Counted from the first letter of the stretch, positions 1 to 16,133 are shown. The stretch: 64,000 nt of DNA from Spirochaetia bacterium (GCA_965243525.1 OZ251568.1:370389-434388); one strand, 5' to 3'. The notes: generated by a model from the sequence alone, not told the origin. A program made the numbers and translations.

Positions 1-356
1 AGAACGCCGAGTAATTCAACATTGCTCGTCTCTGGACTTCCCAGAAGAAACCCCTCCTGCGGGAAAATAAGCAGTCTATATCGTTGATTCGTCAATTCAT
101 CGAGAAAACTGCGTATCCTCGTTTCATAGCCAAGTCCTACGGTGTATGCTGCAATATTAGTCAACCCCCGTCGCAACTGCTCATAGGTAGCATTGTCTAC
201 CAGATATGCATAGAGTGAATCGATGGGGATATGTTGTGCCAGTGCCCCTTCGGTCGCTATGGCAGGAAATCGATTCTTCAAGACCGTTCTGACGTCCTGC
301 GAGAGGATTCCAAAACATTCGCGTATCCAGGCTTCTATGTTCTCATATGTTTTCAT
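1..356 (-). CDS. Tail/baseplate protein in the P2 gpI / Mu gp48 / XkdU position; 3' end outside the window
   Basis: Not in the ORF track (no stop reached). ATG at 356-354 overlaps the TGA of the gpJ-like ORF (ATGA). Hand translation MKTYENIEAWIRECFGILSQDVRTVLKNRFPAIATEGALAQH... stays open to position 1. The family call is by synteny only. Confidence 0.45.
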   Translation of the reverse strand, partial: MKTYENIEAWIRECFGILSQDVRTVLKNRFPAIATEGALAQHIPIDSLYAYLVDNATYEQLRRGLTNIAAYTVGLGYETRIRSFLDELTNQRYRLLIFPQEGFLLGSPETSNVELLGV

Positions 357-1498
357 TGGCTCTCAGTCCCATCTGAAAATCTAATCTGTGGTAAAAACCG
401 CTCGTAATCACCAGGCTGAACTACAGGGTGGTCAAAGACGATATGAATGGCATTAGATGCAATGCCTGCAGCATCGAAGCGGTTGTAGAGTTCAGACTCG
501 TAATAGGCTTCACCGATGCGCAGATTGTGCAGATACCCCTGTGTGATCCCTTCGATAAGCTCATAATCAAGCGATGCATCGTAGGCAATCTCAATAGTAT
601 CACGCGTCTCTCCCGTGAAATAATGTTCAGCGTCTTGGATACTGATGCGAGTCGTGATGAGCCTTGCTTCATCGAGCGCTACTCTAATCTGTTCTCGCTC
701 TTCATTCTGAGCATCAGCGCCATTCTTCGTTGAAATCCAGAGGATGAAGTTTGAATATGTCGTTGAACTGATGCGTTCAATGCGCGCATCGAAAATAAAC
801 TGCTTTGCAATCGCCTCGTAATGTGCACTGATGTCCCCTTGGATCAAGAGCTTCCAATGATTTTGAATCTCATTCCGATAATAAGCATCATCCCAACGAT
901 CAGTCCCAAGTTCTATGGCCGTGTTGATTCCATCATACTCGATCTCTTGTTCAACAAGTTCATCTCCTGGACGATCATAGGTCAGTATGCTGTTCTCAGG
1001 GGGGCGTGAACGCAACCCGGTGATGTTTGAAACAAGCTGTAATTCACCTGAAGTAATATCCCTTGTGTTATCAAGTTCAAAATCCTCTGCTGCGTTGAAC
1101 TCGATACCGGTTTCTTCTGTTCTGCGTTCTTGTGTTTCCGGATCAACTTCAATAATCTGCCCCGTAAAAACCTTTGCGCCTTGCGGAATAGAAAGCGACT
1201 GGACGTCGGGAAGATTGAGAGAAACCCGAAGCGTTATACGCGTGGGAGTCTCCTCTTGACGGGGAAGGTCGAGCATGCGCCCGAAATTATCCAGATAGAA
1301 CCCCCGTGCAGTATCGATATTGAGCTGTTCTTCTACAAAATGCAGGTCTCGATAGACATCCTTCATCAGGCTATCCATGAGTTCTGCAAGGCCGCGCATC
1401 ACTCCCACAGAAGACTGCAGTGACAATTCTGTCTTTTCGCGCGCAAGGGAGAAGATTGCCTCTCTCCTCCCTTCATCGCTTAACCGTAAATAACTCAT
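353..1498 (-). CDS. Baseplate J-like protein (P2 gpJ / Mu gp47 / T4 gp6 class)
   Basis: 381 aa. The start overlaps the stop of the gp25-like ORF. Its size and its position between a gp25-like gene and a gpI-position gene fit this class, and the sequence character fits Baseplate_J by recognition, not by search. Confidence 0.7.
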   Translation of the reverse strand: MSYLRLSDEGRREAIFSLAREKTELSLQSSVGVMRGLAELMDSLMKDVYRDLHFVEEQLNIDTARGFYLDNFGRMLDLPRQEETPTRITLRVSLNLPDVQSLSIPQGAKVFTGQIIEVDPETQERRTEETGIEFNAAEDFELDNTRDITSGELQLVSNITGLRSRPPENSILTYDRPGDELVEQEIEYDGINTAIELGTDRWDDAYYRNEIQNHWKLLIQGDISAHYEAIAKQFIFDARIERISSTTYSNFILWISTKNGADAQNEEREQIRVALDEARLITTRISIQDAEHYFTGETRDTIEIAYDASLDYELIEGITQGYLHNLRIGEAYYESELYNRFDAAGIASNAIHIVFDHPVVQPGDYERFLPQIRFSDGTESQ

Positions 1499-1833
1499 AT
1501 CGCTACCTCCAAGGTTTCAGACCCATCACCGCTGACAAAGGCAATGTGGAAGAAATCCCCCCCATCGCTCACCGAAAAGGAGGTGATCTCCGGCATCGCC
1601 TTGCAAATTCGGATCAACTCGTTTTTCATCTGGGCACGAGAAACCGTGTCGTTTAAAAAATGTGGCACATTGCTGCCAGCATCGGGGTCCCAAGGCAGAT
1701 GCCCCTTTAGGATTTGCATCGATCGGGTGAGATTCTGCGCAATAAGCGCGTTGTCGCTGACTAAACGCAGATCATTCGTCTCTGGATCAACTTGCACATC
1801 GAGGCTGTCGGGGTTCCAAGCGATATCAGTCAT
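1495..1833 (-). CDS. gp25/GpW-like baseplate wedge protein
   Basis: The ORF track gives 1495-1890. I prefer the ATG at 1833, which has GAGGAG 7 nt upstream and an ATGACTGA overlap with the upstream stop. ~112 aa. ...DLRLVSDNALIAQNLTRSMQILKGHLPWDPDAGS... is the pattern typical of the GPW_gp25 family. Confidence 0.65.
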   Translation of the reverse strand: MTDIAWNPDSLDVQVDPETNDLRLVSDNALIAQNLTRSMQILKGHLPWDPDAGSNVPHFLNDTVSRAQMKNELIRICKAMPEITSFSVSDGGDFFHIAFVSGDGSETLEVAI

Positions 1834-2122
1834 TGCCATCCTCCTCATAGGTGATTTCCGCACTGTGCTCAGCAAGAGTCGTGCTGCCACTCAGATCATA
1901 ATCCTCGCCCCCGACGTTCGTTATAAAATCGCCTGCCCCAATCGTCTGTGCAGGAACTCTGATCCGTAACCCTTGCAGAAAGCGGTCAAAGAGCTCTGCG
2001 AGAATTTCTGCATAGGGTTCTAGCTCTGCTTCAGTGAGGCGATCGCGCACAGTCTGTGGAATTAATTCCCGCAAACGCTCAACATAGGTGTTTTTTATGC
2101 TGTTTTTAAGTTGCTCATTCAT
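1826..2122 (-). CDS. Small acidic baseplate-module protein, function unknown (XkdR-like position)
   Basis: 98 aa, translationally coupled on both sides (ATGAATGA overlap at 2115-2122). It sits between the hub/spike gene and the gp25-like gene. Confidence 0.4.
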   Translation of the reverse strand: MNEQLKNSIKNTYVERLRELIPQTVRDRLTEAELEPYAEILAELFDRFLQGLRIRVPAQTIGAGDFITNVGGEDYDLSGSTTLAEHSAEITYEEDGND

Positions 2123-3320
2123 AGAATAATCCTCCTATTTTTCCTTGTAATTCTGTGATACTTGGCGTAACTGTTGACGGATCAATGAACTGCTTGGTCG
2201 GTGATCCAACCGTTCCAATCTGCAAAAAGACATCAAGGATCTGTGATAAGATATCCTTTAGGCTTGCAGCTGCTGTCTTAAATCCAAAAAGATTCTGGTT
2301 TGCATCGAGGCTCAGGCTTGCAGTGCCGTCGGTAAGCTCATAGGCATCCTTTGATCCAAAACATTGGAGCACCACGGGAAAGCCAGGGTTGTCATCGATA
2401 TACCCAATCAGAACAAAAGAACCAACTCCCGGAAGGGAATAGGCACTCTTGGACTCTGCCCATTGTTGGGAGACGACTAAGGCATCACAGAAGAATCCTG
2501 TTTTTTCAAGTGATCCCGGTGTGAGAAGCTCTGCCTTCAGGCTACCTTGCTGAGCATCAACCGCACGCACAACGGCCAATTGGAGCCTTGGAGCCATCGC
2601 TTCCCTGTTCAACTGCGCTGCCCCATCTGGATAGAGAAAGAGCTTGTGCGTATCAACCGTATAGATCAGATGTGATCGAGCCACATGGCTGCTCTTCCCA
2701 TCGATGCTGATCGGCTGCGACTGGCGGGCGATGACCTTCTGCGGCAAAACAAGGATGCGATCGTCGTAGCGTTTGAGGATGTTCTCCCCGGTCTGCAAAC
2801 GTATCGATGATCCTTGCAACGGTGTCTTTTCGATGTGCAAAATGTCATCCGCATCACAGAAGATGCGATACTCCTGCATATCCTGGCCATAGGCCTGCAA
2901 GGCATCAAAGAGCAATTGCAAGGCTCGATGTCCTGGTGTCTCGTATACATGAAAGTTTCGCAAAACCTGTGCAGGAATTGCAACGGATATCGTGGATATT
3001 CCACAGAGGGTGCAAATCTCTTCTGCAAGCTGCTTTGCTGATCGTCGTGCATACGATATGGAAATCGGCGTATAGAGTTTTTCAGCCTGATCAAGCACAT
3101 AAGCTTGGATGTACTGATGCGTTCGGGTGATATGTCCCAAGACCCCCGTGGCAATGCGTGTCTTGTCTAGACTTATCTCCACCGGAGCATCTGCTTGCAT
3201 CGCCGATTCTTCACTTATGGGTACACGTATTATAGTAGTGCTAAAGGGGCTCGAACGATCAGTGATAGATTCGATGCGCTGTACGAGTCGCAGCGATCCC
3301 TGTATACGCAGTTCAATCAC
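2115..3320 (-). CDS. Baseplate hub / central spike fusion (gpD/Mu gp44-like N-terminal part + gpV/gp5 OB-fold-like C-terminal part)
   Basis: 401 aa. The C-terminal segment AVVRAVDAQQGSLKAELLTPG...GVGSFVLIGYIDDNPGFPVVLQCF resembles the Phage_base_V OB-fold motif. The N-terminal ~260 aa occupy the gpD/XkdQ position after the tape measure and GpU-like genes. Confidence 0.55.
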   Translation of the reverse strand: MIELRIQGSLRLVQRIESITDRSSPFSTTIIRVPISEESAMQADAPVEISLDKTRIATGVLGHITRTHQYIQAYVLDQAEKLYTPISISYARRSAKQLAEEICTLCGISTISVAIPAQVLRNFHVYETPGHRALQLLFDALQAYGQDMQEYRIFCDADDILHIEKTPLQGSSIRLQTGENILKRYDDRILVLPQKVIARQSQPISIDGKSSHVARSHLIYTVDTHKLFLYPDGAAQLNREAMAPRLQLAVVRAVDAQQGSLKAELLTPGSLEKTGFFCDALVVSQQWAESKSAYSLPGVGSFVLIGYIDDNPGFPVVLQCFGSKDAYELTDGTASLSLDANQNLFGFKTAAASLKDILSQILDVFLQIGTVGSPTKQFIDPSTVTPSITELQGKIGGLFYE

Positions 3321-3834
3321 GAGGAGTCCCCCGCGAATAATTGTTCAGGGCTTCACGATGCTCGGGACTTTCTTCAATTGAATAAGCAGGTGCCGCTGGT
3401 TCCGGAGTATCTGTGCTGATTCCTGTGATGCGTCGCTGAGTTGCTACCTCAACGAATGCAAGGTCAGCACCCACCAAGGAATCCTTTGCATACGAGAAAG
3501 ACAAGGATGTCCAATAAACCTCGTATACACCAATTGCGTTGATGTAATCCTGTTCGATACTATGAACTACGGGAATGCCCTGTTGTGAGCGTTCAAACTC
3601 TGTTTGCAGGGTCTCAATTTGCGTATCGATGCTCATGTTTTCATCGGGCACGAGCAACAAAGACACGCTGATTGTGATGTCATCATAGCCAGAGAGAACT
3701 TTCTCGGTTTTGGACGCCCCCTCTGCTTTAGAGCTATCCATGATGATCTTGCCATCAATGCTGATGTTCTCAACCACGCCAACAAGGCGTTTCTGATCGA
3801 GAAGTATTTCTGAACCATCATAGTTAAATATCAT
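3313..3834 (-). CDS. GpU / DNA_circ_N-like tail protein (tube-baseplate adaptor class)
   Basis: 173 aa immediately downstream of the tape measure gene. GYDDITISVSLLLVP resembles the P2 GpU motif G.D.D.ITL.G.LLP, and later blocks (IGVYEVY..., ADLAFVEV) are colinear with GpU. Confidence 0.5.
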   Translation of the reverse strand: MIFNYDGSEILLDQKRLVGVVENISIDGKIIMDSSKAEGASKTEKVLSGYDDITISVSLLLVPDENMSIDTQIETLQTEFERSQQGIPVVHSIEQDYINAIGVYEVYWTSLSFSYAKDSLVGADLAFVEVATQRRITGISTDTPEPAAPAYSIEESPEHREALNNYSRGTPRD

Positions 3835-5705
3835 GCATAACTCCGTTTATATCCGCTTGCGCTCTCAAGGATGCGCATAAAACTCATAAGATCTTCAATT
3901 TCAGATGCCTGAACGATGAGTTTCTCGATGTTGATCCGCGAAGGTCGTGGAGAAGCCATCATGCGATCCTGTGATCCTGGTTTCTGATCTGCTTGCTTAA
4001 AGGCAAATGCCTTGCTCACTGTTTGCGAGAGCGTATGCTTGTTGTCATCCACCCCCTTGGCAATCGTCTGCGGGATGCTCCTTCCTGCAGCGCTCAAATG
4101 CGCAAAAGGTCCCCGCTTGGCATCACTCTGTGGGAGAAACTCCCCTGTTTTGCTAAACTGCATCTTGAGAGCCTCTTGCAGGGCAGGGTTGTCTGCTGCT
4201 CCCTCAGCCATGGTATCGATGAGCTCAGACCCTGCATTTTTGGAGCGATTAAACAGTTTTCCGAAGAACTCACCTATCACCTCGAAAGGTCGTGCAATGA
4301 AAGAGACAAGATCAGTTACCGCAGTGATGATCCCTTCAAAAAATTCGCCGATCCATTCCCAAACACTGGTGAAAATGCCAACAAAGAAATCCTTAACAGA
4401 GCTAAAAACTCCCTTGATTCCCTCCCAAAGCCCGGTGAAGGCGCCAATGAGGAACTCCCCACCTGTTTCAATAAATCCTATGATCCACTCCCAAACACCG
4501 GTGAAGATGCCAACAAAGAAATCCTTGACAGTGCTAAAAACCATCTTGATTCCCTCCCAAAGCCCGGTGAAGGCGCCAATGAGGAATTCTCCGGCTACTT
4601 CAATAGATCCTGTGATCCAGTCCCAAACACTGGTGAAAACTCCTACGAAGAAATCCTTGACGGTGTTGAAAACCATTTTGATTCCTTCCCAGAGGTTCAC
4701 AAAAAATTCGCTGATCGGTTCCCAATACTTGATTATCAACATGGGAATCGGCGCAACGATCCACAAGAGTACCTGGACGCCAACTTCAAAGGCCTGTTTG
4801 ATTCCATCCCAAATATTGGTGAAGATCTCAACGAGAAAATCTTTTGCCCCGTTAAAAAATCCTACGATCCAATCCCAGACTCCGGTGAAAATTCCAACGA
4901 AAAAATCCTTAACCGTACTGAAAACATCTTTGATCCAATCCCAAACGCTGGTGAAAATCTGTTTAATGCCCTCCCAGAGGTTGACGAAGAATTCACTGAT
5001 CGGTTCCCAGTATTTGATCACCAAAAACACGATAGCAGCCAATACCAAAATAGCTGCAATGATCAACAAGATTGGCCAGAGTGCTGACCAGTTGGCAACC
5101 GCCCAAGTAATCATCGTTGGGATGACTTTGGCAATTCCTCCCTTCATAGCCTTCAAGGAGTCCTTAAATTTTCCAAACCCATCTGTTATTATGGGAAGAT
5201 CTTTAAAATCCTTTACCGCCGAGGCAATCGATGCGATTGATCCAGCCGTACCTAAGGCATCTTTTCCAAAATTTAATAGTTTTGAACCAAGAGGAGAGAC
5301 ATTTTCTGATAACTGAGACGCTGCAGGACCTGCTTGCGCACCCAAGCTATCAGCAAGGGCAGAACCAGATGCGCCAGCACTCCCTGCACTGTGCATCGCA
5401 TTGGTTGATTCGGTGAGGGCATCGATTCCACTGACAGCAATACCGCTTGACGCCAAAACACTTGTCGCCATATCCCTGGCAGCTCCAGCGATTGCACGCA
5501 TGGAAGTTACCGCTTTTTCACCGGTAATGCTCGTTGCACCTAAGACCGTTGACACCCGATCCATGCCCGATTCAAAAGAATCTGCCAATTCATTCGGCAC
5601 ATCCAGTATAGATCGGAGCGAATCAAGCTTGTCATACAGTGTCTGCAAAGGCACCGAAAATTTGTCTTGCACGGTTATAGTTACTGCAGTGACCAGATCT
5701 GCCAT
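3831..5705 (-). CDS. Tail tape measure protein
   Basis: 624 aa and the largest tail ORF. It is preceded by AGGAG and follows the chaperone pair. It has an Ala/Ser/Gly-rich N-terminus, hydrophobic segments and multiple W/F-rich repeats (VKDFFVGIFTGVWDWI, GAFTGLWEGIK). Confidence 0.8.
   Translation of the reverse strand: MADLVTAVTITVQDKFSVPLQTLYDKLDSLRSILDVPNELADSFESGMDRVSTVLGATSITGEKAVTSMRAIAGAARDMATSVLASSGIAVSGIDALTESTNAMHSAGSAGASGSALADSLGAQAGPAASQLSENVSPLGSKLLNFGKDALGTAGSIASIASAVKDFKDLPIITDGFGKFKDSLKAMKGGIAKVIPTMITWAVANWSALWPILLIIAAILVLAAIVFLVIKYWEPISEFFVNLWEGIKQIFTSVWDWIKDVFSTVKDFFVGIFTGVWDWIVGFFNGAKDFLVEIFTNIWDGIKQAFEVGVQVLLWIVAPIPMLIIKYWEPISEFFVNLWEGIKMVFNTVKDFFVGVFTSVWDWITGSIEVAGEFLIGAFTGLWEGIKMVFSTVKDFFVGIFTGVWEWIIGFIETGGEFLIGAFTGLWEGIKGVFSSVKDFFVGIFTSVWEWIGEFFEGIITAVTDLVSFIARPFEVIGEFFGKLFNRSKNAGSELIDTMAEGAADNPALQEALKMQFSKTGEFLPQSDAKRGPFAHLSAAGRSIPQTIAKGVDDNKHTLSQTVSKAFAFKQADQKPGSQDRMMASPRPSRINIEKLIVQASEIEDLMSFMRILESASGYKRSYA
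4326..5021 (-). repeat. Internal tandem repeats in the tape measure gene (W/F-rich units; YWEPISEFFVNLWEGIK x2, VKDFFVG(I/V)FT(G/S)VW(D/E)WI x4, GEFLIGAFTGLWEGIK x2)
   Basis: The repeats are seen directly in the translated sequence (aa ~229-460). They also generate the long spurious plus-strand ORFs 3993-5087 and 4012-5316. Confidence 0.85.
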
Positions 5706-5822
5706 CTATTCAAACTCCTATTTTATTCCATGCCAGAGGGAATGCCCCTGGCAGTTCATACTTTCCAACCAGCATACTTTGTTCTAGATGCCAATGCACA
5801 TATGCTCGCGTATCCACCACGG

Positions 5823-6331
5823 TCATCGATCTCCATCGATTGCCTTGACGATCGCCTCACGAAGCACTCCTACCTGCAATTCACGCACGAAATGTGCCTC
5901 GCTGAGCAAGATCGTTGCGCTATCAATCGGGTAATCTTCTACATCAATTCCCAAAAAATAGCGGATGTAGATACGCATCTTGGCTATATCGCCTAGAGCT
6001 CCTTGGAGCTTACCGCTGGGCTGCTCCCGAAAAAAGGGGTGATCACCGTGTCGATGAAACTCCCCACTGGCAAGGGATAATCCTCCAACTGGGTGACTAT
6101 ATCCTTGCTATCAGGCTTGACAATAATCGAGGCAAGCAAGCCCAATTGGGCACTCAAGGGTGCCTTTTGGATGCTCGCCTGGAAACGCTCGATATCACTG
6201 ACTCGCGGTCGTCGATAGACGAACTGCAATTCATGAACAGTCGCGGACTCATCAGAAAAACTGATGCTGCCTTGATATATCTTTCCATACTGTTTTTTCA
6301 GTTGCTCAATATCTGCTTCTTCTATGTGCAT
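5823..6331 (-). CDS. Predicted -1 frameshift product of the tail assembly chaperone (GT / E+E' type)
   Basis: A slippery heptamer T_TTT_TTC lies in the zero frame at 6035-6029, 12 codons before the stop. The -1 frame stays open for 67 more codons (REQPSGKLQGALGDIAKMRIYIRYFLGIDVEDYPIDSATILLSEAHFVRELQVGVLREAIVKAIDGDR) to TGA at 5825-5823. Confidence 0.5.
5993..6331 (-). CDS. Tail assembly chaperone (lambda G / P2 E position)
   Basis: 112 aa ORF between the tube and tape measure genes. It contains the frameshift site near its 3' end. Confidence 0.6.
   Translation of the reverse strand: MHIEEADIEQLKKQYGKIYQGSISFSDESATVHELQFVYRRPRVSDIERFQASIQKAPLSAQLGLLASIIVKPDSKDIVTQLEDYPLPVGSFIDTVITPFFGSSPAVSSKEL
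6029..6035 (-). promoter_or_regulatory. -1 programmed ribosomal frameshift slippery site (U UUU UUC)
   Basis: The mRNA reads acc cct ttt ttc ggg. It fits X_XXY_YYZ in the zero frame and is followed by small GGAGC/GCTCC stem options. Confidence 0.5.
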
Positions 6332-6340
6332 GTTCTTCCC

Positions 6341-6781
6341 TTACACCGCCGTATAGGCTGGAATGCCGTCACGGACAATCGGTTGGACTAATTCACCTGA
6401 GATCTTCACCTTCAAATAGGTGTCACCCTTTGTTGCAGAAAAATCTCGTGACTTGAATTTCACCACAAGGTTCACCACAATCGGCGCACTGCTTGGATCG
6501 ACGGCATAGACCACGACCACCGGCACCGCATGATTGTTATAAAACCCACCGGAATTGTTCATATACTGTTCAAATGTCTGATAGTCCTCTTGCCCAAGCT
6601 CGATATCACATTTACCGCTATAGGCGCCTCGGCCAATCCCAACGGGCAGGTTGTGCCGTCCCGTGATGACCTCGTCAGCTTTTTCATCGCTATAGTTGAT
6701 GCTCTCTGCAAGCACGGGAACCTGTCCATCCGGGAAAGTTATCTTGATACTTTCATAATCATATACAACACCGTTAATCAT
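6341..6781 (-). CDS. Tail tube protein
   Basis: 146 aa, coupled (ATGA) to the upstream sheath-like gene and followed by the chaperone and tape measure genes. The size and position are typical for a contractile-tail tube. Confidence 0.65.
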   Translation of the reverse strand: MINGVVYDYESIKITFPDGQVPVLAESINYSDEKADEVITGRHNLPVGIGRGAYSGKCDIELGQEDYQTFEQYMNNSGGFYNNHAVPVVVVYAVDPSSAPIVVNLVVKFKSRDFSATKGDTYLKVKISGELVQPIVRDGIPAYTAV

Positions 6782-7857
6782 AATGCCTCCTGTGTACTAA
6801 AGGATATTTCGTTTTCGATATAACTCAATTTGCCCAAGGGAACGATGCGGATTCTCACGCGTATGGTGTTTGTTTGGAGAATCTGATCGATGTCGTTGAG
6901 TTCAATCACAAAGTCGGTGATCTCACCGTTTGCCTGCATCTGATTCAAGGGCAATTCACATATGGCCTTGAACATTTCCAACTCTTCAACACTCACCGCT
7001 ATGGTGTCGTTTACAAATTGCAATTGTGCAGCTCTGACCAATCGACAGGCGCGATTCATGACGCGTGTTTTTTCAACGGTGTCAAAATCACTGTCTGCGT
7101 CGCTGTCGATGCGTGCCAAGGTGATGAATATTCCGTCAGTACCATAGTATTCTCGAGCTACTGTATAACTATTACGTGACATATCAACAAGTTGACCATC
7201 GTTTAAAACTGGAGTGCGTCCACTTGCTAAAGGGATTGGTCCGTATTTGACTGCATCAACTGCTTCATGAGCTTGTCGGGCAAGTACCAAAGGCAGATAG
7301 GAAAACAAGAGCGGTTCGGTGCTCCCATCGGACAACGTAATATCCCCTGCAACATTTGCAAGACGCAAGGAACTCTGAGTTGAACGTTCTTCTCCCGTCA
7401 ATTTTGATATCCAGGTACCTATTCCCTCATTGTCCTGTGGCAAGCGGGGCCGCACGACTCCAAGGGTGTATTGATGACGCCCTGCTGCCTGCTTAAGCTG
7501 CAGCGCAAGATTACTCCAGGTGTTCGCATCAGTTACGTCAACAATGCTCAATACCTCGATTGGCTTGCTGTCCTCAAGGGCAAGTTTGATTGCATCTTGA
7601 TAGGGCTCTGCATTCTCGGTGCCAATTACATCCACTCCTCGCAAGCCTGTGTTCAGGGCTCTCGCCGCTGCCCTCCTAAGTTCACTGCTCCCGAGTTTTT
7701 CGAGACCTGCATCATCGGTGATACGCGTTATTGTATTCCATTTAAAATCGTCAGTTTCCTCCGCGATGCCGATGAGTACCAGTCGATCACTCGTATTTTT
7801 AAGACGACCCAATCCTCGCATAGCGATTGTGGTCTTGATACCAGGTAATTTATCCAT
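6778..7857 (-). CDS. Tail sheath protein (short form)
   Basis: 359 aa directly upstream of the tube gene. The N-terminal LPGIKTTI...LVLIGIAEE and the C-terminal RVMNRACRLVRAAQLQFV...GEITDFVIE blocks resemble sheath N- and C-terminal motifs. A sheath is required by the gp25/gpJ/gpV-type baseplate present here. Confidence 0.65.
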   Translation of the reverse strand: MDKLPGIKTTIAMRGLGRLKNTSDRLVLIGIAEETDDFKWNTITRITDDAGLEKLGSSELRRAAARALNTGLRGVDVIGTENAEPYQDAIKLALEDSKPIEVLSIVDVTDANTWSNLALQLKQAAGRHQYTLGVVRPRLPQDNEGIGTWISKLTGEERSTQSSLRLANVAGDITLSDGSTEPLLFSYLPLVLARQAHEAVDAVKYGPIPLASGRTPVLNDGQLVDMSRNSYTVAREYYGTDGIFITLARIDSDADSDFDTVEKTRVMNRACRLVRAAQLQFVNDTIAVSVEELEMFKAICELPLNQMQANGEITDFVIELNDIDQILQTNTIRVRIRIVPLGKLSYIENEISFSTQEAL

Positions 7858-8368
7858 TCATTTCCTCCTCTGATTCTGATACCTGCAGTGGATCCTCTGT
7901 CACTGCGCCAGCTAATGTTATTTCTAGATCTTGATATCTATCTCGTTCAAATATTATTGGCAGTGTTGCCGTATAATAGTCAGCATCTCGCAAAAACGTC
8001 GTATCGCGCTCTGAATCAACCTGCACGGTGCTCTGCGTTCTGCGCCATGGTGATGCATCAACAATGCTCGCCGTCAAATCAACACTTGATTGCTGCGTCG
8101 CCACATACAAGCTCAAACGACCATGAATCAGCTGCGTCCCGCGAATTCTGCGTCTGTTTTGGCCACCGTCTGCATCTTGCACCACGACAAGACGAGCCTT
8201 TTCAGCGTTTATCGTGCTTCCTTCCACAACAAAGAGTGCCGATGGATAGGTTCCACCTGCGTGGAAAGTCTGTGCATCTTGTTCGTTCCAGGCTATGTTG
8301 GTGATTTCCAACTCACTCAGGATTTCACGCACCCAGGCTTGCATATCTGTATAGATTTGCCTGCTCAT
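7850..8368 (-). CDS. Tail completion/terminator-like protein (Mu gp37/XkdJ position)
   Basis: The ORF track starts at a TTG at 8389. I prefer the ATG at 8368, which has GGAGAG upstream. ~172 aa, with an 8-nt overlap with the sheath gene. The function is inferred from position only. Confidence 0.4.
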   Translation of the reverse strand: MSRQIYTDMQAWVREILSELEITNIAWNEQDAQTFHAGGTYPSALFVVEGSTINAEKARLVVVQDADGGQNRRRIRGTQLIHGRLSLYVATQQSSVDLTASIVDASPWRRTQSTVQVDSERDTTFLRDADYYTATLPIIFERDRYQDLEITLAGAVTEDPLQVSESEEEMNG

Positions 8369-8885
8369 TGCACTCTCCAATCGAGACAATGAACATCCAG
8401 TGCATGAGATTGCACCATATAGTTGAATGCTTCATGCTGTGACCACTGTCTGCCCCTCTGCCCTGTTCTTGTCGATCTTCCAAAAAGATGTGTTGTGTGC
8501 ATAAATCCTTTCTGCTGAATTTTTAAGAAATACCAGACATCCTCGCGGATGTTTTCTGTTGCTGCCTTCTCCAGGGACAACCTGGATTCGCTGCTTGGCT
8601 TTGTGTTTTGTGGATAACACCGCCAAGATTTGGTGATGCACTCCGGGAAGAACAATAACTCATGACCTTCCAACAACTGTGTTATTCTCGCATGACTGAG
8701 CGTTCCAAATACAATACCATTGGTACTATAAATGGTCCATTGGAACGGGGTGCAATCCCACCAAGGTATGCATTACGACGCCCTCCCAAGGCATCCCAGC
8801 CATTCCACAGAATTATTGCACCAACAACGCGATTGTCGTGCCAACAAGCACAGCGCCCACGACGCCCAGGCTGATGCCCAGAATC

Positions 8886-9293
8886 TTATTGAGTCGCTGT
8901 GCCTTCTGCTGTGCCTGCTTCGACGAGCGCAAGTTCGTTTCTAAGCTCTCGATTGATCGAGAGAGCTCGTTCAAGCTCTCTCTCTGCTTCGATGAGTAAT
9001 CCTGCACTTGATTTAGCGACGTTTCTAATATCTCTAACTGCTCGCGAAGAGAGTTCGAGTCGCTTTCGCTCTCGTGTAATAATGTCTCCAAGTGTTGTAG
9101 TTGCCTGTCTTGCTCCTCTGAGTTCTGCTTCAGTTGCTGTATATACTGCTGTAAAACGATCAAGCTCTGCTCTTGCATCTGCAGCATCTCCAGAGTCCAC
9201 ATTCGATCTGTTTCGGAACCCAAAAAAGATTCCTGCGACGACAGCACAGAGTAAGACAGCACCAAAAATAATGCTATACTTGCGCTTCGCCAT
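8886..9293 (-). CDS. N-terminally anchored coiled-coil membrane protein (i-spanin-like lysis accessory)
   Basis: 135 aa. MAKRKYSIIFGAVLLCAVVAGIFFGF is a signal-anchor/TM segment, followed by a helical, charged region. The ATG is 1 nt after the stop of the upstream 37-aa ORF. Codon choice (gaa/gca-rich) matches neighbouring phage genes better than the overlapping frame 8813-9376 does. Confidence 0.5.
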   Translation of the reverse strand: MAKRKYSIIFGAVLLCAVVAGIFFGFRNRSNVDSGDAADARAELDRFTAVYTATEAELRGARQATTTLGDIITRERKRLELSSRAVRDIRNVAKSSAGLLIEAERELERALSINRELRNELALVEAGTAEGTATQ

Positions 9294-9294
9294 A

Positions 9295-9408
9295 TCACAG
9301 AAGAATCAATGCAAGAACGATTGCAACACCAAGGGCAATAATGCCGATTTTGGTGATGAGTTTGAGATTTTTCCAATGGGTGTATAGTTTTTGTAAGAAT
9401 TGTTTCAT
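9295..9408 (-). CDS. 37-aa single-TM peptide (lysis-cassette small membrane protein)
   Basis: Below the ORF-track size cut-off and found by hand. GGAGG lies 5 nt upstream of the ATG at 9408. The translation is MKQFLQKLYTHWKNLKLITKIGIIALGVAIVLALILL. Confidence 0.4.
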   Translation of the reverse strand: MKQFLQKLYTHWKNLKLITKIGIIALGVAIVLALILL

Positions 9409-9420
9409 GCTTACCTCCGT

Positions 9421-9738
9421 TTATTTTCGCTCAAGTACGCCGATTCCCAACAAGCCACCTGCTGTTGGAAATAAATACATAAGATAGTTTGCGACATCGC
9501 GCTCAAAAGCCACGCCGATTCCAATCAGAGCGAGCGATGCTCCAAGAAGAATATAGGCAGCAACACGTTTGCTGCTTGTGTTGCCTTGTTTGTCACAAAA
9601 TAATCCATGTCCTGGGTTTTGTTTTCTGTCACCAGATTTGGACGGGCAATCGTCATACCGATTTGATCCACCGCCGGTGCTTTTTATGTTTTTTGCATTT
9701 TTTGTTGGTTTTCTGGTTTCCTGTGATTGTTTATCCAT
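9421..9738 (-). CDS. Holin-like protein with two C-terminal TM segments
   Basis: 105 aa, with an 8-nt overlap with the M23 gene. A basic N-terminus is followed by AAYILLGASLALIGIGVAF and LMYLFPTAGGLLGIGVL. Confidence 0.5.
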   Translation of the reverse strand: MDKQSQETRKPTKNAKNIKSTGGGSNRYDDCPSKSGDRKQNPGHGLFCDKQGNTSSKRVAAYILLGASLALIGIGVAFERDVANYLMYLFPTAGGLLGIGVLERK

Positions 9739-10375
9739 CTGCTAACTCCTTGTATGTTGCAAGAACCTTTCTCCAGTTTCTGCCGCCATATTCAGGTCGC
9801 AGGGAGAGGTCTCCTTGATGTTCCTCCCATTCAAGTGGATAGAGTTCTGCCGGGTCTGGACGATCTTCCCAACGTTGCCAAGGACTCTCGTGCAGTTCAT
9901 AGTGGATATGGGCACCGGTCGAATAGCCTCCGTTGCCTGATTCACCTATCATCGAACCGCGGGTCACCTTCTTGCGTTCGCCAATGACCGCAAAGGTTTT
10001 GCCAAATCCATAGATCAACCCTTTTAGTTTTTTGTTGTGTTCAAGTTGTGCGGTGATCTCGCCATGGGCAAAGACATGGGTCAATCCGCTCTTGCCTTCC
10101 AAGATGTAACAACGCCCGAATACCGCCATACGGTAATGCCGAAAGGGTGCCAATGATCGTGGTATATCCCGATGCATCAACGAGTCAGTGATGATCCACC
10201 ACCACCCGATGCCGTCTTCCGGAGCCCGGATAGGGGTTCCAACCGGGACAGCAATGTCCCAAGCACCGTGCACATGGTTGCGATGTTCTTCTGGTTTGCT
10301 CAAGGGGCGTGGTTCATAAAACTCAGTAGTTAATTGCCAATCGTTTCCAACTGGAAAAAGTAGCGAATCAGTCAT
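9731..10375 (-). CDS. M23-family zinc metallopeptidase (candidate endolysin)
   Basis: 214 aa with no signal peptide. The HxxxD motif (HGAWD) and the HxH motif (GAHIHYELH) are in the order expected for M23/LytM. Confidence 0.8.
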   Translation of the reverse strand: MTDSLLFPVGNDWQLTTEFYEPRPLSKPEEHRNHVHGAWDIAVPVGTPIRAPEDGIGWWWIITDSLMHRDIPRSLAPFRHYRMAVFGRCYILEGKSGLTHVFAHGEITAQLEHNKKLKGLIYGFGKTFAVIGERKKVTRGSMIGESGNGGYSTGAHIHYELHESPWQRWEDRPDPAELYPLEWEEHQGDLSLRPEYGGRNWRKVLATYKELADG

Positions 10376-10605
10376 TAAAGTAATCCTTCGAAAACCATGC
10401 GGACAAGATACATCACGCCGTCGATTCCACCGATGAATGCTGCCGCCAAGGTTGCAATCATGATCAGTTCTATGCGTTGCTGCCGTCGCTCCTGCTTTTC
10501 ATATTTCGTTTCAATATTTTCAACACGATGCTTCAAGCCCTTGTATCCATTGCCATGCACAGCGTGTTCCAGTTTTGCGATTCGTTCTGTTTGTGTTTGT
10601 GCCAT
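10375..10605 (-). CDS. Small membrane protein with one C-terminal TM (holin/antiholin candidate)
   Basis: The ORF track starts at 10644, inside a terminator hairpin. I prefer the ATG at 10605 (AAGGAA upstream), giving MAQTQTERIAKLEH...IELIMIATLAAAFIGGIDGVMYLV. The stop overlaps the M23 start. Confidence 0.45.
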   Translation of the reverse strand: MAQTQTERIAKLEHAVHGNGYKGLKHRVENIETKYEKQERRQQRIELIMIATLAAAFIGGIDGVMYLVRMVFEGLL

Positions 10606-10620
10606 ATATTCCTTCGTTCC

Positions 10621-10659
10621 AAAAAAAAAGAGAACTCCCCGCATATAGCGGGTGTTCTC
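10621..10659 (-). terminator. Strong intrinsic terminator between the early and lysis/late blocks
   Basis: The minus-strand RNA reads GAGAACACCCGC-TATAT-GCGGGGAGTTCTC followed by nine U. It lies 100 nt after the SSB-like stop and only ~12 nt before the RBS of the next gene. Confidence 0.75.
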
Positions 10660-10765
10660 TCCTTATAGATACTGTTCCGAACTCAATGTTCTTGCGATCA
10701 GCAATTACAGTGTATCATGCAAATCGCGAAGAACGCGTATAGTTTACATATTTTTGATAAAAAAA

Positions 10766-11164
10766 TTAAGAGGAATTGTTCTTGTAAAAAGAACCATCCT
10801 CCCCAAAATCATCGAGTGTTCCTTCAAACGGAGCGTCCTGACTCAATTCAAGCCCTTGGATGCGCACAACAATATTGCTGTGGATGATTTCATGATCCGT
10901 TTCTTCCAGATTCTGATGTAGCTCTCCCAGCACGCGTACAAGAGAACCTTCGCGAACACTACACAGCGTATTTGCCATATCCCCCCAGGCTTCAATATCA
11001 ACATAGGAAATAACTTCTCCTATTTCGCCCAATTCGTCGATGCCCTGCCGAACGGTTTTGAGCATTGCCTCCACCTTGTAGATAGGGTCTGTTTGTTTTT
11101 GGAGTATCTCCCCGATGAGAATCCCCTCTAATAAGACAATGTTAAGAAAGTCTAATTGTTGCAT
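10766..11164 (-). CDS. SSB-like OB-fold protein
   Basis: 132 aa. LNIVLLEGILIGEI..., ...IEAWGDMANTL...EGSLVRVLGEL... and the acidic near-C-terminal DDFGEDGSF resemble the bacterial/phage SSB layout. Confidence 0.5.
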   Translation of the reverse strand: MQQLDFLNIVLLEGILIGEILQKQTDPIYKVEAMLKTVRQGIDELGEIGEVISYVDIEAWGDMANTLCSVREGSLVRVLGELHQNLEETDHEIIHSNIVVRIQGLELSQDAPFEGTLDDFGEDGSFYKNNSS

Positions 11165-11226
11165 GCTAGCTCCTGCTTCATAATTTCAGTGGTACTATCA
11201 TATAGTATCATACCCCTGTGTGGTCT

Positions 11227-11778
11227 TCATTGGCCCAGTTCTTGCTGAATTGCATCGTGCAATCCTTCTAGGCTAATGCCGTCTAATTTTTTTTGCAATA
11301 TATCGATTTCTGCCTGTATCTGCGCTCGATCCTCACTCGAACTCTTGTTTGGATCCCATTTTTTGCGAAGAATCCAATGCCATTCTATCGCCGAAGAACA
11401 GAGGAATCGAAGCTGCACATCATAGGGCATTTTGTTAAACAAGGGCTCTTTTTTTGCCTTGGCCGACAGGCTCTTCTGCGGATCGGGAGGAATTTGCGAT
11501 AACAAATCCCAAAAATCACCGGGAAGCGGCAGAAGATCGCCCCCCCGAACTGAATTCATCAGCATTTCAAGCAGAGCACGCATGCGTTGGCCATCATGAG
11601 CTATTTTTCGCAACACTCGTGCAACCGCAGCGTATTGGGTTGGGTTGTATTTCCGTCTGTAGAGCTGCTCGATGCTGGTGATGCATTCTTGAATGGTATT
11701 CTGTATGGTGGTTTGCCATGTATCAACGTGAGAGTCGTGCATCCCATGCCTCCTTTTCTCGCTCTGTGAATCGCTCAA
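11227..11778 (-). CDS. Hypothetical early/regulatory protein
   Basis: 183 aa ORF with no recognisable motif. The real start may be the Met at 11742 (MHDSHVDTW), because 11743-11778 overlaps the upstream gene. Confidence 0.4.
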   Translation of the reverse strand: MSDSQSEKRRHGMHDSHVDTWQTTIQNTIQECITSIEQLYRRKYNPTQYAAVARVLRKIAHDGQRMRALLEMLMNSVRGGDLLPLPGDFWDLLSQIPPDPQKSLSAKAKKEPLFNKMPYDVQLRFLCSSAIEWHWILRKKWDPNKSSSEDRAQIQAEIDILQKKLDGISLEGLHDAIQQELGQ

Positions 11779-13234
11779 CCCATCGATCCATGTCTTCGTC
11801 TTCCGATGGCATCATCTGCGCTGTTTGTTGATCCAGAATACTACGTTGCTCAATTGCCGCTTGCAGCGATTGCTGCACCATATGCAAGAGTCGCTCATAA
11901 TGCGGGAGAATTCCACTGGGACAAAACGGAATGCTCTGCCAAAAGGATTGTTCTCGCTCGGATAGGCTTCCGTCTTGCTTGAGCATGCGAAGTTTTGCAA
12001 GTATCGCTTGGAGGATTTTTCGCGCATCTCCACAAGAATGCCGCTCAGCACGCAAACGCAACTGCCTGAGTGCACCACGCTGCTTTGCTATTGCAGCATA
12101 ATAGACATCTGCATCCTGACTGAGAAATATCTGTTCAATATCTGCCTCCACCGCATGTTTAAGCGTTCCAATTCCTTTTTTTGATCGTGGCGAGGAAGGT
12201 GAACCTGGCGCAAGAACAGCATCTGTTTTGCGAGCAAGAACGTCTTCAGATTTTTCTGCTCCATCTTGGCAGTATTTCCCTGCGCTATTCTCGGCATGCT
12301 CCTCTGCCCCATCCTGGAGATCTCTCCCCACCCCACGTTGAACATGCCCCCCTGCTTCATTTTGAACACTCCAGGCAGGCTGAACACCTTCTTCTGCGTC
12401 ATCCACTTCCTCCAAGGCCATGATTTCTTCTGGCAGAAAGGAATCAGAATCGGCGATATGACGAAAATCATTCACCTGCAACAACGTAGGCTCTGGTGTA
12501 AGTTCTGGTGTAGGTTTTGTACTATATACATCAACTGATTTCTCATTTCTGCATTCGTGCAATACTTGCGGATGCACAAAAAACTTTTCCATTCCTGCAT
12601 TTGCTACGTGCTGATTCTGCAAAGCACGTGAAGAAATCGCCCTATCTTCTTCATTTTTTTGTGATTCTTGTCCGACAATTCCTGGGACAGGCGTATTCTT
12701 CTTGCCTTGCGCTGCTTCTTCTGATTGAGGCGTTGATAGGGACATCAAGTGAGGTTCTAGCTGCGCATCTGCTTCTTGCTTGGCATCGGCACGATCCTTC
12801 TGCACTGGTTCAGCAGTGATAGCAAGGCCTTCATTGATCGTCGGACCGGCCGTCGGGGCATCAGATATCAAAACATCAGACGTCGGAGTCTCAGATATCG
12901 CTGCATCACCCACCGGGGCATCATCTAATTGACCCAACTGCGCCTTTCTTTCTGGCGATATCCTGAAATACAAAACACGATTGCACGATGCCTTTTGCAT
13001 CTCTTCGATAATCCCTGCTTTGCGTAACACAGCGCGTGCTGCCTTCTGCTGATAATATGATAGGCCCGTTTCAGCGCTGAACTCCTCAGCACTCTTGTAG
13101 ATCCATCCCTCAGGATCTCGCGTACGACTGCTCCAATATTCAAGTTGTGCAAGCAGGGCCGCTGCACTCATCCCCCACTGCCTGATATAGGACACGTCGA
13201 TGCATAAAACACGCCGTCGCTGCTTCATTGACAT
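11723..13234 (-). CDS. Putative replication/DNA-binding protein with an N-terminal winged-helix-like domain and a long disordered linker
   Basis: 503 aa. The N-terminal ~100 aa (LAQLEYWSSRT...WIYKSAEEFSAETGLSYYQQKAARAVLRKAGIIEE) look like phage replication-organiser wHTH domains. The middle is low-complexity. There is no Walker A, so it is not a terminase. Confidence 0.4.
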   Translation of the reverse strand: MSMKQRRRVLCIDVSYIRQWGMSAAALLAQLEYWSSRTRDPEGWIYKSAEEFSAETGLSYYQQKAARAVLRKAGIIEEMQKASCNRVLYFRISPERKAQLGQLDDAPVGDAAISETPTSDVLISDAPTAGPTINEGLAITAEPVQKDRADAKQEADAQLEPHLMSLSTPQSEEAAQGKKNTPVPGIVGQESQKNEEDRAISSRALQNQHVANAGMEKFFVHPQVLHECRNEKSVDVYSTKPTPELTPEPTLLQVNDFRHIADSDSFLPEEIMALEEVDDAEEGVQPAWSVQNEAGGHVQRGVGRDLQDGAEEHAENSAGKYCQDGAEKSEDVLARKTDAVLAPGSPSSPRSKKGIGTLKHAVEADIEQIFLSQDADVYYAAIAKQRGALRQLRLRAERHSCGDARKILQAILAKLRMLKQDGSLSEREQSFWQSIPFCPSGILPHYERLLHMVQQSLQAAIEQRSILDQQTAQMMPSEDEDMDRWVERFTEREKEAWDARLSR

Positions 13235-13434
13235 GCTTCACACTCCCCCGTTTCTCCTGAATAGGCAGCACATCCAGCTAGAAAATCATCAGTATCTTGC
13301 AATGCTGTTGCATCTTCAGCAAAATCTTCCGTGTCTTGTCTTGCAAGCTCCTCAGTGTTATGCGCGCATTTAAACAGTGCAGCATCTGTGCTCAGTTCAG
13401 TGTTCATAGGTGTAGAAAAAGATTGTGTAGTCAT
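13225..13434 (-). CDS. Small, highly acidic protein (69 aa)
   Basis: The ORF track starts at 13500. I prefer the ATG at 13434, with GGAGG 6 nt upstream, giving MTTQSFSTPMNTELSTDAALFKCAHNTEELARQDTEDFAEDATALQDTDDFLAGCAAYSGETGECEACQ. The stop overlaps the next gene. Confidence 0.4.
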   Translation of the reverse strand: MTTQSFSTPMNTELSTDAALFKCAHNTEELARQDTEDFAEDATALQDTDDFLAGCAAYSGETGECEACQ

Positions 13435-13446
13435 GGCATTCCTCCA

Positions 13447-13481
13447 ATAAAAAATCCCCTTGTCACGTGACTGACAAAGGG
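13447..13481 (-). terminator. Intrinsic terminator immediately upstream of the replication-gene block
   Basis: The minus-strand RNA reads CCCUUUGUCA-GUCACG-UGACAAGGGG (10 bp including one G-U) followed by AUUUUUUAUU. The RBS of the next ORF starts right after the U tract. Confidence 0.6.
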
Positions 13482-13630
13482 AAAACAACACGATACACAC
13501 CTGTTTTGCGTATTATTACAGGAGGAACTATTTTTTGTTGCAAAGAGCTAATAGCGTGCTTCGATCTATTTGACACAATCGTGCAATACATCGCATCGCA
13601 TTGCCATATCATCGCCCAGAAATACCGAGC

Positions 13631-13657
13631 AAAAAAGGAAAATGGCCGTTTTCCTTT
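13631..13657 (-). terminator. Weaker AU-rich terminator-like hairpin downstream of the annealing-protein gene
   Basis: The minus-strand RNA reads AAAGGAAAA-CGGCCA-UUUUCCUUU followed by UUU, ~75 nt after the stop at 13732. Confidence 0.35.
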
Positions 13658-13731
13658 CATACAGAATCTAATACAAAATACACGTAGCGACAAACATAAA
13701 TTGTTTAAAAAGCGCATTTTTTCTGCAATGT

Positions 13732-14403
13732 TCATAGAATTTGTTTCTCCCTCGCTGATTTTGACAGATATCTCAGACGGCCCAAGCCCTGCTTCGCGTA
13801 TTCTTCTTTCTTTATAGTATCATATGTATAGTATGCATCAACCGATTGTTGTTGTTGCTCTGCGGTAATCAATGCCTGTTCGCGTGCTTCTGCAAGTTTT
13901 TCAAGAAATTGCCGTCCTATGACCGGCTCATCTGTCGACAGAGTTGCAGGGTCTTGCTGATGATATTCACCTTCGTCAAAAACACCGCACCCACAGAGGC
14001 TGAGAGTTAATCGACGTTTCGCCTTGGTCTCGCATTTCATAATCGCATTTGCTCGCGATTCTCCTTTGAGCATCCCGATATCGATTGCCCCCATCGCTAC
14101 GTCAGTTCGACCCGTCTTGTCCTTGCCGGTCACGCTCACAATGAGGCAACCATTTAATTCCTCATGCTGCATATCGAGGATGGACACCCCATGCACCTTG
14201 CGCAATTGATCGGTTCCCTGCCTGGTGACATAGAGCGTCAATTTTCCATTGAGTCGAATGTATTCAAAAGGCCTGGTTAGGGGATGCACCCCGGCAAATT
14301 CACACATTTTTTTGTAATGCTGCACCTTTTGCGCATCGTTAAGTTGATCCAGATCATGCGAAAGAATGACCTGCTCAATCGAATCTGGTATATGTTCAGA
14401 CAT
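13732..14403 (-). CDS. Single-strand annealing protein (Red-beta/RecT superfamily, Bet-like)
   Basis: 223 aa directly downstream of, and overlapping, the YqaJ-type exonuclease gene. ...NAIMKCETKAKRRLTLSLCG... resembles the conserved C-terminal core block of Red-beta-type proteins. Confidence 0.6.
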   Translation of the reverse strand: MSEHIPDSIEQVILSHDLDQLNDAQKVQHYKKMCEFAGVHPLTRPFEYIRLNGKLTLYVTRQGTDQLRKVHGVSILDMQHEELNGCLIVSVTGKDKTGRTDVAMGAIDIGMLKGESRANAIMKCETKAKRRLTLSLCGCGVFDEGEYHQQDPATLSTDEPVIGRQFLEKLAEAREQALITAEQQQQSVDAYYTYDTIKKEEYAKQGLGRLRYLSKSAREKQIL

Positions 14404-15385
14404 AACCTTCCTCCTTTATAGTACGAATCTGATAATTCGTAGAATTATAGGTATATTTTTTTACAAGTTCTTCTTGTTCTTTTTTCAGTCGCGCCGTATC
14501 AATGCGCTTGGCGTTCACCCGAATCAATGATGCCTGCAGGTTCTGCGATATCAGCGTACACCGCGCGACAGCTTCCATCTTTTTGAGATGTATCAGGTCC
14601 AGTTGCGACAGCACCCTTTGCACCGCCGCACGCTCATCGGCAATAACCCGCTTTTTCTTTCCACGTAAACTCAAGAGATCCGAAAGCGCCGCGTGCATCT
14701 CCTGTGAATTGTTTTCGATAGTTCCAATATTCTTGTCTGATGACAACAAGGCGGCCAGCACCTCGTTCAGATATTCAGGATTTGGTGGATCAGAGAATTC
14801 AATGAACTCCCAAAATGTTGCAATTGCTACCTTGATGCAGGCGATGATCTCTTCATCACGCTGAATCTCAAACACATGATAAGCAAGTGAATCCACCGCA
14901 TAGGGATCTGCTGGATCGTATACTCCCAGCAAAATGAATCCGTGGGTGGACTCGGTGATCGCAAGATAATGCTGCACTTGCAGGGTATATTGATCAGGCA
15001 CCCCCTTCTCCCAATACTGCAGGTTTTGCGGTGAGGTGGTTTTGATTTCAAGCACACAGTTGCCATGACGTTCGTCTTCAACCCATCCGTCGATGTTCGC
15101 ATGGGCACGCGGAATATCGGGGTTGGTCAGAAAACTCTTTGGTGCATTCAGCAGGCTTATCTTTCTTCCCAGCACTTCGGTCAAAACTTTGGCAGATCGT
15201 CTGCGAATTTTTGATTCAAGCTTTCTTCCAATACGCATCGCTTCATAATCCATCGATGGACGATATCGGTTTCGTTTCAGACTATACAATCGCGCCGCCG
15301 ACAAAAATGGGCTCTTGCCCAACAAGGCAGCTATTTCACTGCCCCCAATCGATGTGTGCCGGCGCTCATGCCAGGTTTTTTGCAT
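14396..15385 (-). CDS. YqaJ-type (lambda Exo-like) exonuclease
   Basis: 329 aa. WHERRHTSIGGSEIAALLGKSPF is the typical YqaJ N-terminal motif. It is paired with an annealing protein. Confidence 0.75.
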   Translation of the reverse strand: MQKTWHERRHTSIGGSEIAALLGKSPFLSAARLYSLKRNRYRPSMDYEAMRIGRKLESKIRRRSAKVLTEVLGRKISLLNAPKSFLTNPDIPRAHANIDGWVEDERHGNCVLEIKTTSPQNLQYWEKGVPDQYTLQVQHYLAITESTHGFILLGVYDPADPYAVDSLAYHVFEIQRDEEIIACIKVAIATFWEFIEFSDPPNPEYLNEVLAALLSSDKNIGTIENNSQEMHAALSDLLSLRGKKKRVIADERAAVQRVLSQLDLIHLKKMEAVARCTLISQNLQASLIRVNAKRIDTARLKKEQEELVKKYTYNSTNYQIRTIKEEGYV

Positions 15386-16034: not shown

Positions 16035-16039
16035 CAATT

Positions 16040-16070: not shown

Positions 16071-16110
16071 TACTATTTTTACTACTTCTTTATTTTTATT
16101 TGGATTCGAA

Positions 16111-16116: not shown

Positions 16117-16133
16117 TAGTCTTAGGAGAGACT

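Follow-up and report, generated by a model that had tools for sequence, protein, structure and literature searches.

In a 64,000-nucleotide stretch of DNA from a Spirochaetia bacterium (GCA_965243525.1 OZ251568.1:370389-434388; this whole stretch is called the window below), positions 1-18106 are the right-hand part of a phage-derived element abutting the 3' end of a tRNA-Val gene, and all genes of this element, except the one encoding its repressor, lie on the minus strand. We consider it probable, at roughly 60%, that the element is a derivative of a temperate, lambdoid-regulated myophage which lacks the head module and makes free tails upon SOS induction. In the best-supported reading it is functionally an R-type tailocin and evolutionarily an intermediate, a head-deleted prophage not fully pared down; that is, a headless tail cluster derived from a prophage, early in its reduction and of a kind already known. 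The initial annotation of this DNA had left the choice between an SOS-inducible R-type tailocin and a head-deleted prophage: the head module is absent at its canonical site, as it is in a sister element discussed below, but the replication genes have been retained, and 'head-deleted prophage behaving like a tailocin' is a better description of the element than 'domesticated R-type tailocin'. Gene content, gene order, the intactness of the genes and the absence of a head module at the canonical site can be read directly from the DNA, and every element that had been placed on the minus strand beforehand was found there, within a few bases of the expected position.

The contractile-tail module occupies positions 8368-1 and consists of the following genes:

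7850-8368, minus strand: first tail gene (p179), with positional and weak sequence homology to a 167-172-aa pre-sheath protein of related phages; coding score positive
6778-7857, minus strand: contractile sheath, short form, 359 aa (Pfam DUF2586, 4.8e-32; PHROG tail sheath, 6e-29)
6341-6781, minus strand: tail tube (PHROG_4579, 2.4e-13; 45-53% identity to relatives)
5823-6331, minus strand: tail assembly chaperone (112 aa) with frameshift extension (Pfam DUF6848, 7.7e-11)
3831-5705, minus strand: tape measure, 624 aa (PHROG_58, 3.5e-46)
3313-3834, minus strand: conserved tail protein directly after the tape measure (p173, 173 aa; tblastn ~1e-12, same position in the related loci L005 and L009)
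2115-3320, minus strand: hub and spike protein, 401 aa, residues 2-235 and 238-384 of which match two consecutive open reading frames (ORFs) of the related locus L002
1826-2122, minus strand: small baseplate-region protein p98 (98 aa); coding score positive, small ORF at the same place in relatives
1495-1890, minus strand: gp25/W-like baseplate wedge (sheath initiator; PHROG_261, 1.6e-4; homologue of an L002 ORF with Sheath_initiator)
353-1498, minus strand: baseplate J-like wedge, 381 aa (PHROG_6, 1.5e-13; collinear tblastn matches to the Baseplate_J genes of relatives)
1-355, minus strand: gpI-like baseplate gene, 5' part, its frame open to the edge of the window (similar to the gene that follows J in L005 and L009)

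All 11 tail ORFs are intact, each has a positive coding score, and the gene junctions overlap by 4-8 nt, in agreement with the earlier description of the tail genes as uninterrupted and almost all translationally coupled. The tail components are thus present and intact from p179 to gpI, the full gpI-like product (P0025, 167 aa) having 49 aa beyond the window, and the fibre and receptor-binding genes would lie past its edge. The assignments proposed beforehand (sheath, tube, frameshifting chaperone, tape measure, hub/spike, gp25-like, gpJ-like and gpI genes) were confirmed by Pfam and PHROG searches, by tblastn and by a structure model. This AlphaFold model, of the sheath (pLDDT, the predicted local distance difference test score, 76), matches solved contractile sheaths in Foldseek with E values down to 5e-13, among them the sheaths of phages, R-pyocin, diffocin, antifeeding prophage (AFP) and Photorhabdus virulence cassette (PVC); a sequence profile of the sheath gave no significant match against the PDB. 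At 32 of the 35 near-invariant positions of the family the window sheath keeps the consensus residue. In the chaperone gene (5993-6331) a -1 slippery site, T TTT TTC at 6035-6029, opens the p51 frame (5823-5978), an extension conserved in relatives. The first gene product, p179, is probably a tail terminator or completion protein; it has no family match in Pfam or PHROG and no significant match in the PDB by sequence profile, and its single-sequence structure model (pLDDT 49) is too poor for use. The hub/spike ORF, whose L002 counterparts are adjacent ORFs (15404-16162 and 16159-16782), is either a gene fusion in the window or split in the relatives. Within the tape measure gene, at 4335-4982, a tryptophan-rich unit of 66 nt (22 aa) is repeated in tandem about six times.

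The position of this tail module can be judged against a group of myophages with DUF2586 sheaths, the nearest of which are only 35-41% identical to the window's sheath, those of cultured phages such as Faecalibacterium phage Mushu and the Meiothermus, Thermus and Myxococcus phages being more distant. Loci of the group were fetched around sheath homologues (six), from IMG/VR (nine plus thirty) and from metagenomes (forty-two), and gene order was counted in those with enough upstream DNA (24 from metagenomes, 27 from IMG/VR, plus L002-L006, L009 and L015, some of them redundant). In these more than 50 loci the genes for capsid, Mu_gp36, Phage_tail_S, the 167-172-aa protein (t172) and sheath follow each other without exceptions; fuller loci read (terS, TerL, portal, Mu_F, protease), capsid, Mu_gp36, Phage_tail_S, the 167-172-aa protein, a small ORF, a sheath of ~470 aa, tube, chaperone, tape measure and on to J. 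The tail module of the window is homologous and collinear with that of these phages (L002, L005, L007 and others) from the 172-aa protein through I, including the order sheath, tube, DUF6848 chaperone with -1 frameshift, tape measure and baseplate J. However, directly upstream of the tail the relatives have terS, TerL, Portal_Mu, Mu_F, protease, capsid, gp36 and tail_S, and their sheath measures ~470 aa, whereas the window contains no such head and connector genes and its sheath measures 359 aa. Of the genes that precede the sheath in the relatives, it has just p179, the homologue of t172, and before p179 come a gap of 444 bp and the lysis genes. Group members come from gut metagenomes, some of which we take to be termite-gut, and in one case from a metagenome-assembled genome (MAG) of Spirochaetales.

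Pfam and PHROG searches, run on the element's ORFs and, elsewhere in the window, on the large ones, found no terminase, portal, capsid, protease or integrase family. When every head-region ORF of six related phages was compared by tblastn with the 64 kb, the only match with E < 0.03 was the positional homologue of p179, and the head-joining genes Mu_gp36 and Phage_tail_S are absent beside the tail module; the claim that the window holds no head or packaging genes therefore stands. In the late operon of lambda the lysis genes come first, then the head genes and then the tail genes. Two lines of synteny, from the lambdoid late operon and from the relatives of the tail, thus put the head module at 8369-8812, and there it is missing.

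These observations bear on the possibility that the element is a complete inducible prophage of unorthodox order, with head and packaging genes as well as an integrase gene to the left of the window, after the fibre genes and transcribed last. Such a prophage would account for the intact state of the repressor, recombination, replication, lysis and tail genes, and, as there is no integrase at the tRNA end, a functional one would have to be at the far end. Yet none of the more than 50 related loci has its head genes anywhere other than directly upstream of the tail, lambdoid late operons place them between the lysis and tail genes (as in textbook lambda), the connectors gp36 and tail_S are missing beside the tail, and a temperate myophage whose late genes run lysis, tail, head is not known to us, which also counts against this explanation. 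We regard it as unlikely, if by no means negligible. The relatives further show that the tail of the group was joined to two unrelated head modules, hence that modules are exchanged freely, a point in favour of such an unusual prophage: L002, L005 and L007 share with L009 and L015 the same tail module (sheaths 50-54% identical), whereas their head modules are different and BLAST detects no similarity between the portals of the two. The mosaicism of modules at the head-tail joint is clear, and two unrelated head modules on the same tail mean that the module boundary is a real recombination joint. In the phage of the Spirochaetales MAG (L005) a protein with an mtd_2nd domain occupies the fibre position (19546-20745), with an N6_N4 methylase gene after it; mtd_2nd is a domain like that of the major tropism determinant, as in targets of diversity-generating retroelements.

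Upstream of the tail module lie the gap, the lysis genes (10605-8813) and a terminator:

10662-10620, minus strand: intrinsic terminator (11-bp outer and 5-bp inner stem, T9 tail, fold z = -3.7)
10375-10605, minus strand: small coiled-coil protein with a C-terminal transmembrane segment (XhlA-like architecture), the first late gene (from sequence and coding score)
9731-10375, minus strand: M23 metallopeptidase, candidate endolysin (Pfam Peptidase_M23, 3.8e-9; PHROG endolysin and endopeptidase families)
9421-9738, minus strand: holin-like protein with two C-terminal transmembrane segments (from sequence; 49% identity to an ORF of the sister element)
8813-9376 and 8886-9293, minus strand: membrane-anchored coiled-coil lysis accessory gene or genes (PHROG_2990, PHROG_937; translation)

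The terminator is as strong as had been supposed and lies just upstream of the late operon, whose first ATG is at 10605. The lysis cassette, previously drawn from 10605 to 8886, is present, its last ORF being ambiguous between two overlapping frames and reaching 8813. The product of frame 8813-9376 is a coiled coil anchored in the membrane at its C-terminus and is XhlA-like according to weak PHROG matches, and that of frame 8886-9293 has an N-terminal membrane anchor followed by a coiled coil, which is i-spanin-like; both overlapping frames score as coding, and the region may be dual-coding, or one of the frames may be an artefact of coiled-coil sequence. Between lysis and tail genes, the ORF-poor gap of 0.44 kb was found to be 444 bp long (8369-8812) and without coding signal; the ORF 8365-8676, listed there in the initial annotation, is not a gene, having no coding signal either, and the gap is therefore truly non-coding. 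Remnants of head genes were not found in it by tblastn. A structured RNA or known RNA family was considered for this region and rejected, as there was no Rfam match at or above the gathering score and no significant fold. The gap stands where the head module is expected, and it is a deletion or recombination scar, the promoter region of the tail genes, or both.

On the other side of the terminator, the early genes lead up to a divergent repressor gene:

16134-16952, plus strand: CI/LexA-type repressor (HTH_3 and Peptidase_S24, 1.1e-18), divergent from the early genes
14396-15385, minus strand: YqaJ exonuclease (6.2e-21)
13732-14403, minus strand: p223, early gene
11723-13234, minus strand: O/DnaD-like replication initiator (PHROG_9773, 1.5e-19)
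11227-11778, minus strand: p183, early gene
10766-11164, minus strand: SSB-like (single-stranded DNA-binding protein-like) gene, early gene

The repressor had been described as keeping an Ala-Gly site and a Ser/Lys dyad; the Ala-Gly, the serine within G-R-S-M and a lysine further downstream are all visible in its sequence. The initiator, SSB-like and YqaJ genes score as coding; according to an earlier caveat, recombination and replication genes are not expected in a fully domesticated tailocin. Of the early genes listed at first, those at 10766-15385 are present, but the ORF 15366-16070 has no coding signal; the ~750 bp between repressor and YqaJ (15386-16133) hold no convincing coding ORF and no cro. 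The ORFs within a further ~500 bp (13225-13735) lack a convincing coding signal, and the ~1.15 kb from the repressor to the tRNA-Val gene (16953-18106) has a poor one. The segments 15386-16133 and 16953-18106 may be decayed lysogeny genes (cro, integrase or excisionase), the remnants of which are no longer recognisable. No relatives of the M23 or YqaJ proteins were found in IMG/VR.

Such weakly coding stretches would be expected if the element were an inert remnant, from which a recent deletion took the head module and the integrase gene and which is too young for decay, no useful particle being made or selected. The ~750 bp between repressor and YqaJ and the ~500 bp at 13225-13735, together with the absence of cro, the poorly coding 1.15 kb towards the tRNA gene and the fact that the replication genes have not been purged agree with this explanation. 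It is at odds, however, with 11 intact tail ORFs, an intact frameshift site, intact lysis genes and overlapping junctions, as well as with a sheath that keeps nearly all family-invariant residues, and we hold it to be doubtful. It also has to accommodate a second element of the same kind.

This sister element, L001, is besides the window the only other exception to the order with head genes upstream, and it lies on a 485-kb contig of an ENA/NCBI assembly. Its sheath (381 aa, 10001-11146) and that of the window are both without the same ~110-aa domain, an outer domain present in all of the ~470-aa relatives, and the alignment boundaries of the missing part are identical. In a neighbour-joining tree of sheath and tube L001 is sister to the window in 200 of 200 bootstraps; the two are 35-48% identical at the amino-acid level. 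The tail operon of L001 starts with a 170-aa homologue of p179, after an intergenic region of 530 bp. The 10 kb upstream contain a holin-like gene (49% identical to that of the window), genes for a MuB-like ATPase, Gam and Mor, three Amidase_2 genes and then host genes, but neither MuA nor head genes. The amidase/Mor/Gam/MuB region extends over 1016-4843, and Kelch beta-propeller proteins are encoded in the fibre position (16404-21146); a search with a partial Kelch protein of 735 aa found only one standalone paralogue (63% identical), which lies among host genes at 10001-11728 of L016, another contig of the same assembly. A search for more members of the short-sheath clade, with a profile of the window and P0003, gave none in the metagenome and viral collections.

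Two divergent, intact and headless relatives with the same boundary speak for one of two histories: the head module was lost once, long ago, and function has been kept since, or the clade has an unorthodox gene order. For the idea of an inert remnant this is a further difficulty: L001 is intact and headless at the same boundary too, and two recent accidents are hard to invoke, even though the three amidase genes of L001, and its MuB-like gene in the absence of MuA, give it a rearranged and degenerate look. For that of a complete prophage it is of some help, since the sole sister is unseen beyond the genes in the fibre position. The single old loss leads to an idea that we put forward tentatively and regard as improbable, namely that there is an old lineage of units consisting of a holin and a short-sheath tail, in which the head was lost once and which are carried on a lambdoid backbone in the window and on a Mu-like backbone in L001. 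The same unit on two backbones would also suit a helper-dependent, tail-encoding satellite that replicates itself and makes tails of its own, but uses for its packaging the capsids of another phage resident in the same cell; the window's own repressor, replication module and tails, with no capsid or terminase gene in view, fit that description. However, we detected no terS, pac or cos signal, integrase or excisionase, a helper is not known and, to our knowledge, a tail-only satellite would be without precedent, all of which makes this explanation extremely improbable.

As for a head-deleted prophage with tailocin-like behaviour, the S24 repressor, a late operon gated by a terminator and the linkage of lysis genes are consistent with an inducible unit that produces tails. 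We infer induction by the SOS response, the way in which the late operon is controlled, the production of particles and their ability to kill, as follows. DNA damage would lead to RecA-stimulated self-cleavage of the S24 repressor, whereupon the leftward early operon (exonuclease, replication initiator, SSB-like gene) would be turned on and the locus possibly amplified in situ. Late transcription would then pass the terminator at 10662-10620 by antitermination, or start from a late promoter, and run through the genes for the holin-like protein, the M23 endolysin and the membrane-anchored coiled-coil proteins straight into the tail genes. Complete contractile tails without a capsid would be assembled and released by lysis.

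Several points weigh against this interpretation. The replication and recombination genes are intact, as in an intact or only recently damaged prophage, and tailocins are defined by the loss of replication genes (PMC12090994, PMC4542187), whereas the initiator, SSB-like and YqaJ genes have all been kept here. The window ends inside the baseplate genes, so that the tail fibres, the left boundary and everything leftward lie beyond position 1 and out of sight; an intact phage needs an integrase, and both integrase and head genes could be located there. The IMG/VR loci are biased towards contigs carrying head genes. The window and L001 are on long branches, and their pairing could be inflated by long-branch attraction; the right flank of L001 past the Kelch genes is likewise unseen, and the two could form a sister clade with an unorthodox gene order. 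Finally, every protein of the window that was tested, host proteins included, is a singleton at 90% identity, which means that conservation across strains cannot be shown.

Among described systems the closest analogue is the R-type syringacin of Pseudomonas syringae, which combines a tail of Mu/SfV type with an S24-type regulator and in which both the head and the replication genes have been lost (PMC4542187). Both have in common a Mu-type contractile tail, a RecA-type autopeptidase repressor, linked lysis genes and, as far as the window reaches, the lack of heads; in contrast to the syringacin, the window keeps the initiator, SSB-like and exonuclease genes, and it is likened to a tailocin by its gene architecture. 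The syringacin locus is conserved across species (PMC4542187), whereas that of the window is known from one genome. A linkage of lysis genes and a stress-responsive regulator to the tail is characteristic of tailocins; in the window the tail is linked to lysis genes and to a putatively stress-responsive HTH and S24 repressor. The R2 pyocin (Pseudomonas aeruginosa, P2-derived) and diffocin follow the same logic of repressor, lysis genes and tail without head, and the window sheath is of a minimal length (~350-385 aa), like those of pyocin, AFP and diffocin, its modelled fold matching those of R-pyocin (3j9q) and diffocin (6gkw/8v3t). The window differs from R2 pyocin and diffocin in having a DUF2586/Mu-type rather than a P2-type tail, with all lysis genes upstream and replication genes kept. 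With lambda, whose late operon comprises pR', tR', lysis, head and tail genes, the window shares a divergent CI-type S24 repressor and a strong terminator before the lysis genes; unlike lambda, it has no recognisable Q, cro, N or integrase, it lacks the head block and its tail is contractile.

Two other kinds of system were considered and rejected. An extracellular contractile injection system of AFP/PVC type would not agree with the tail module, which contains no AAA+ ATPase or cargo-like gene, nor with the phage tape measure, lysis genes and CI repressor; the likeness of the sheath fold to AFP and PVC is generic to all contractile systems. A PBSX-like or gene transfer agent-like particle was discarded because the window has no capsid, portal or terminase. 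A search of the accessible library brought up no literature on DUF2586 or on tailocins of spirochaetes.

The right border of the element is formed by the tRNA gene, beyond which the window contains genes of the host:

18107-18180, minus strand: tRNA-Val(GAC), its 3' end facing the element
20785-22596: lepA, host region

The tRNA-Val(GAC) gene is the probable right boundary and integration site. A repeat of its 3' end was not found within the 64-kb window, an integrase gene was not found between it and the repressor, and no ORF of 1-18106 contains an integrase or transposase domain according to Pfam and PHROG; the absence of an integrase, asserted in the initial annotation, thus holds by domain search for 1-18106, the far end of the element being outside the window. 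Host genes follow from 18785 (SurA/PpiD-like, lepA, htrA, ftsH, tilS, pth, L25, obg), and further ones include gltBD, argS, secA, genes for penicillin-binding proteins, a Bmp/PnrA-type ABC transporter and a Maf-like gene. No near-identical DNA was found among GenBank phages. No 50%-cluster representative is more than 53% identical to LepA, and the nearest named matches, at 49%, are from Dehalogenimonas and Patescibacteria, which says little about the lineage of the host. The Bmp/PnrA and Maf-like genes, and the occurrence of phage relatives in the Spirochaetales MAG and the presumed termite-gut metagenomes, are no more than hints of a spirochaete. The host genome, a contig of 1.79 Mb, has no close sequenced relative and comes from a lineage of which very little has been sampled.

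Prophages have given rise to tailocins on many occasions, and the described cases are mostly end-products, found in Proteobacteria and a few Firmicutes. Should the head genes lie to the left of the window, the element would be an ordinary prophage with an unusual gene order. If the old lineage of holin and short-sheath tail units exists, it would be a long-lived tailocin family in poorly sampled bacteria, its replication module kept perhaps for amplification of the locus prior to lysis; alternatively, such units would move as tail-only passengers of other phages. If the element is headless, it would represent a snapshot of the transition from prophage to tailocin, in which head genes, head-joining genes and integrase are gone and repressor, replication, lysis and tail genes are intact. 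Comparison of the canonical phages with the window and L001 would then show which genes and parts of genes near the tail can be dispensed with when tails need not be joined to heads any more (gp36, tail_S and the outer domain of the sheath), and whether the retained replication genes boost tailocin yield would become a testable question.

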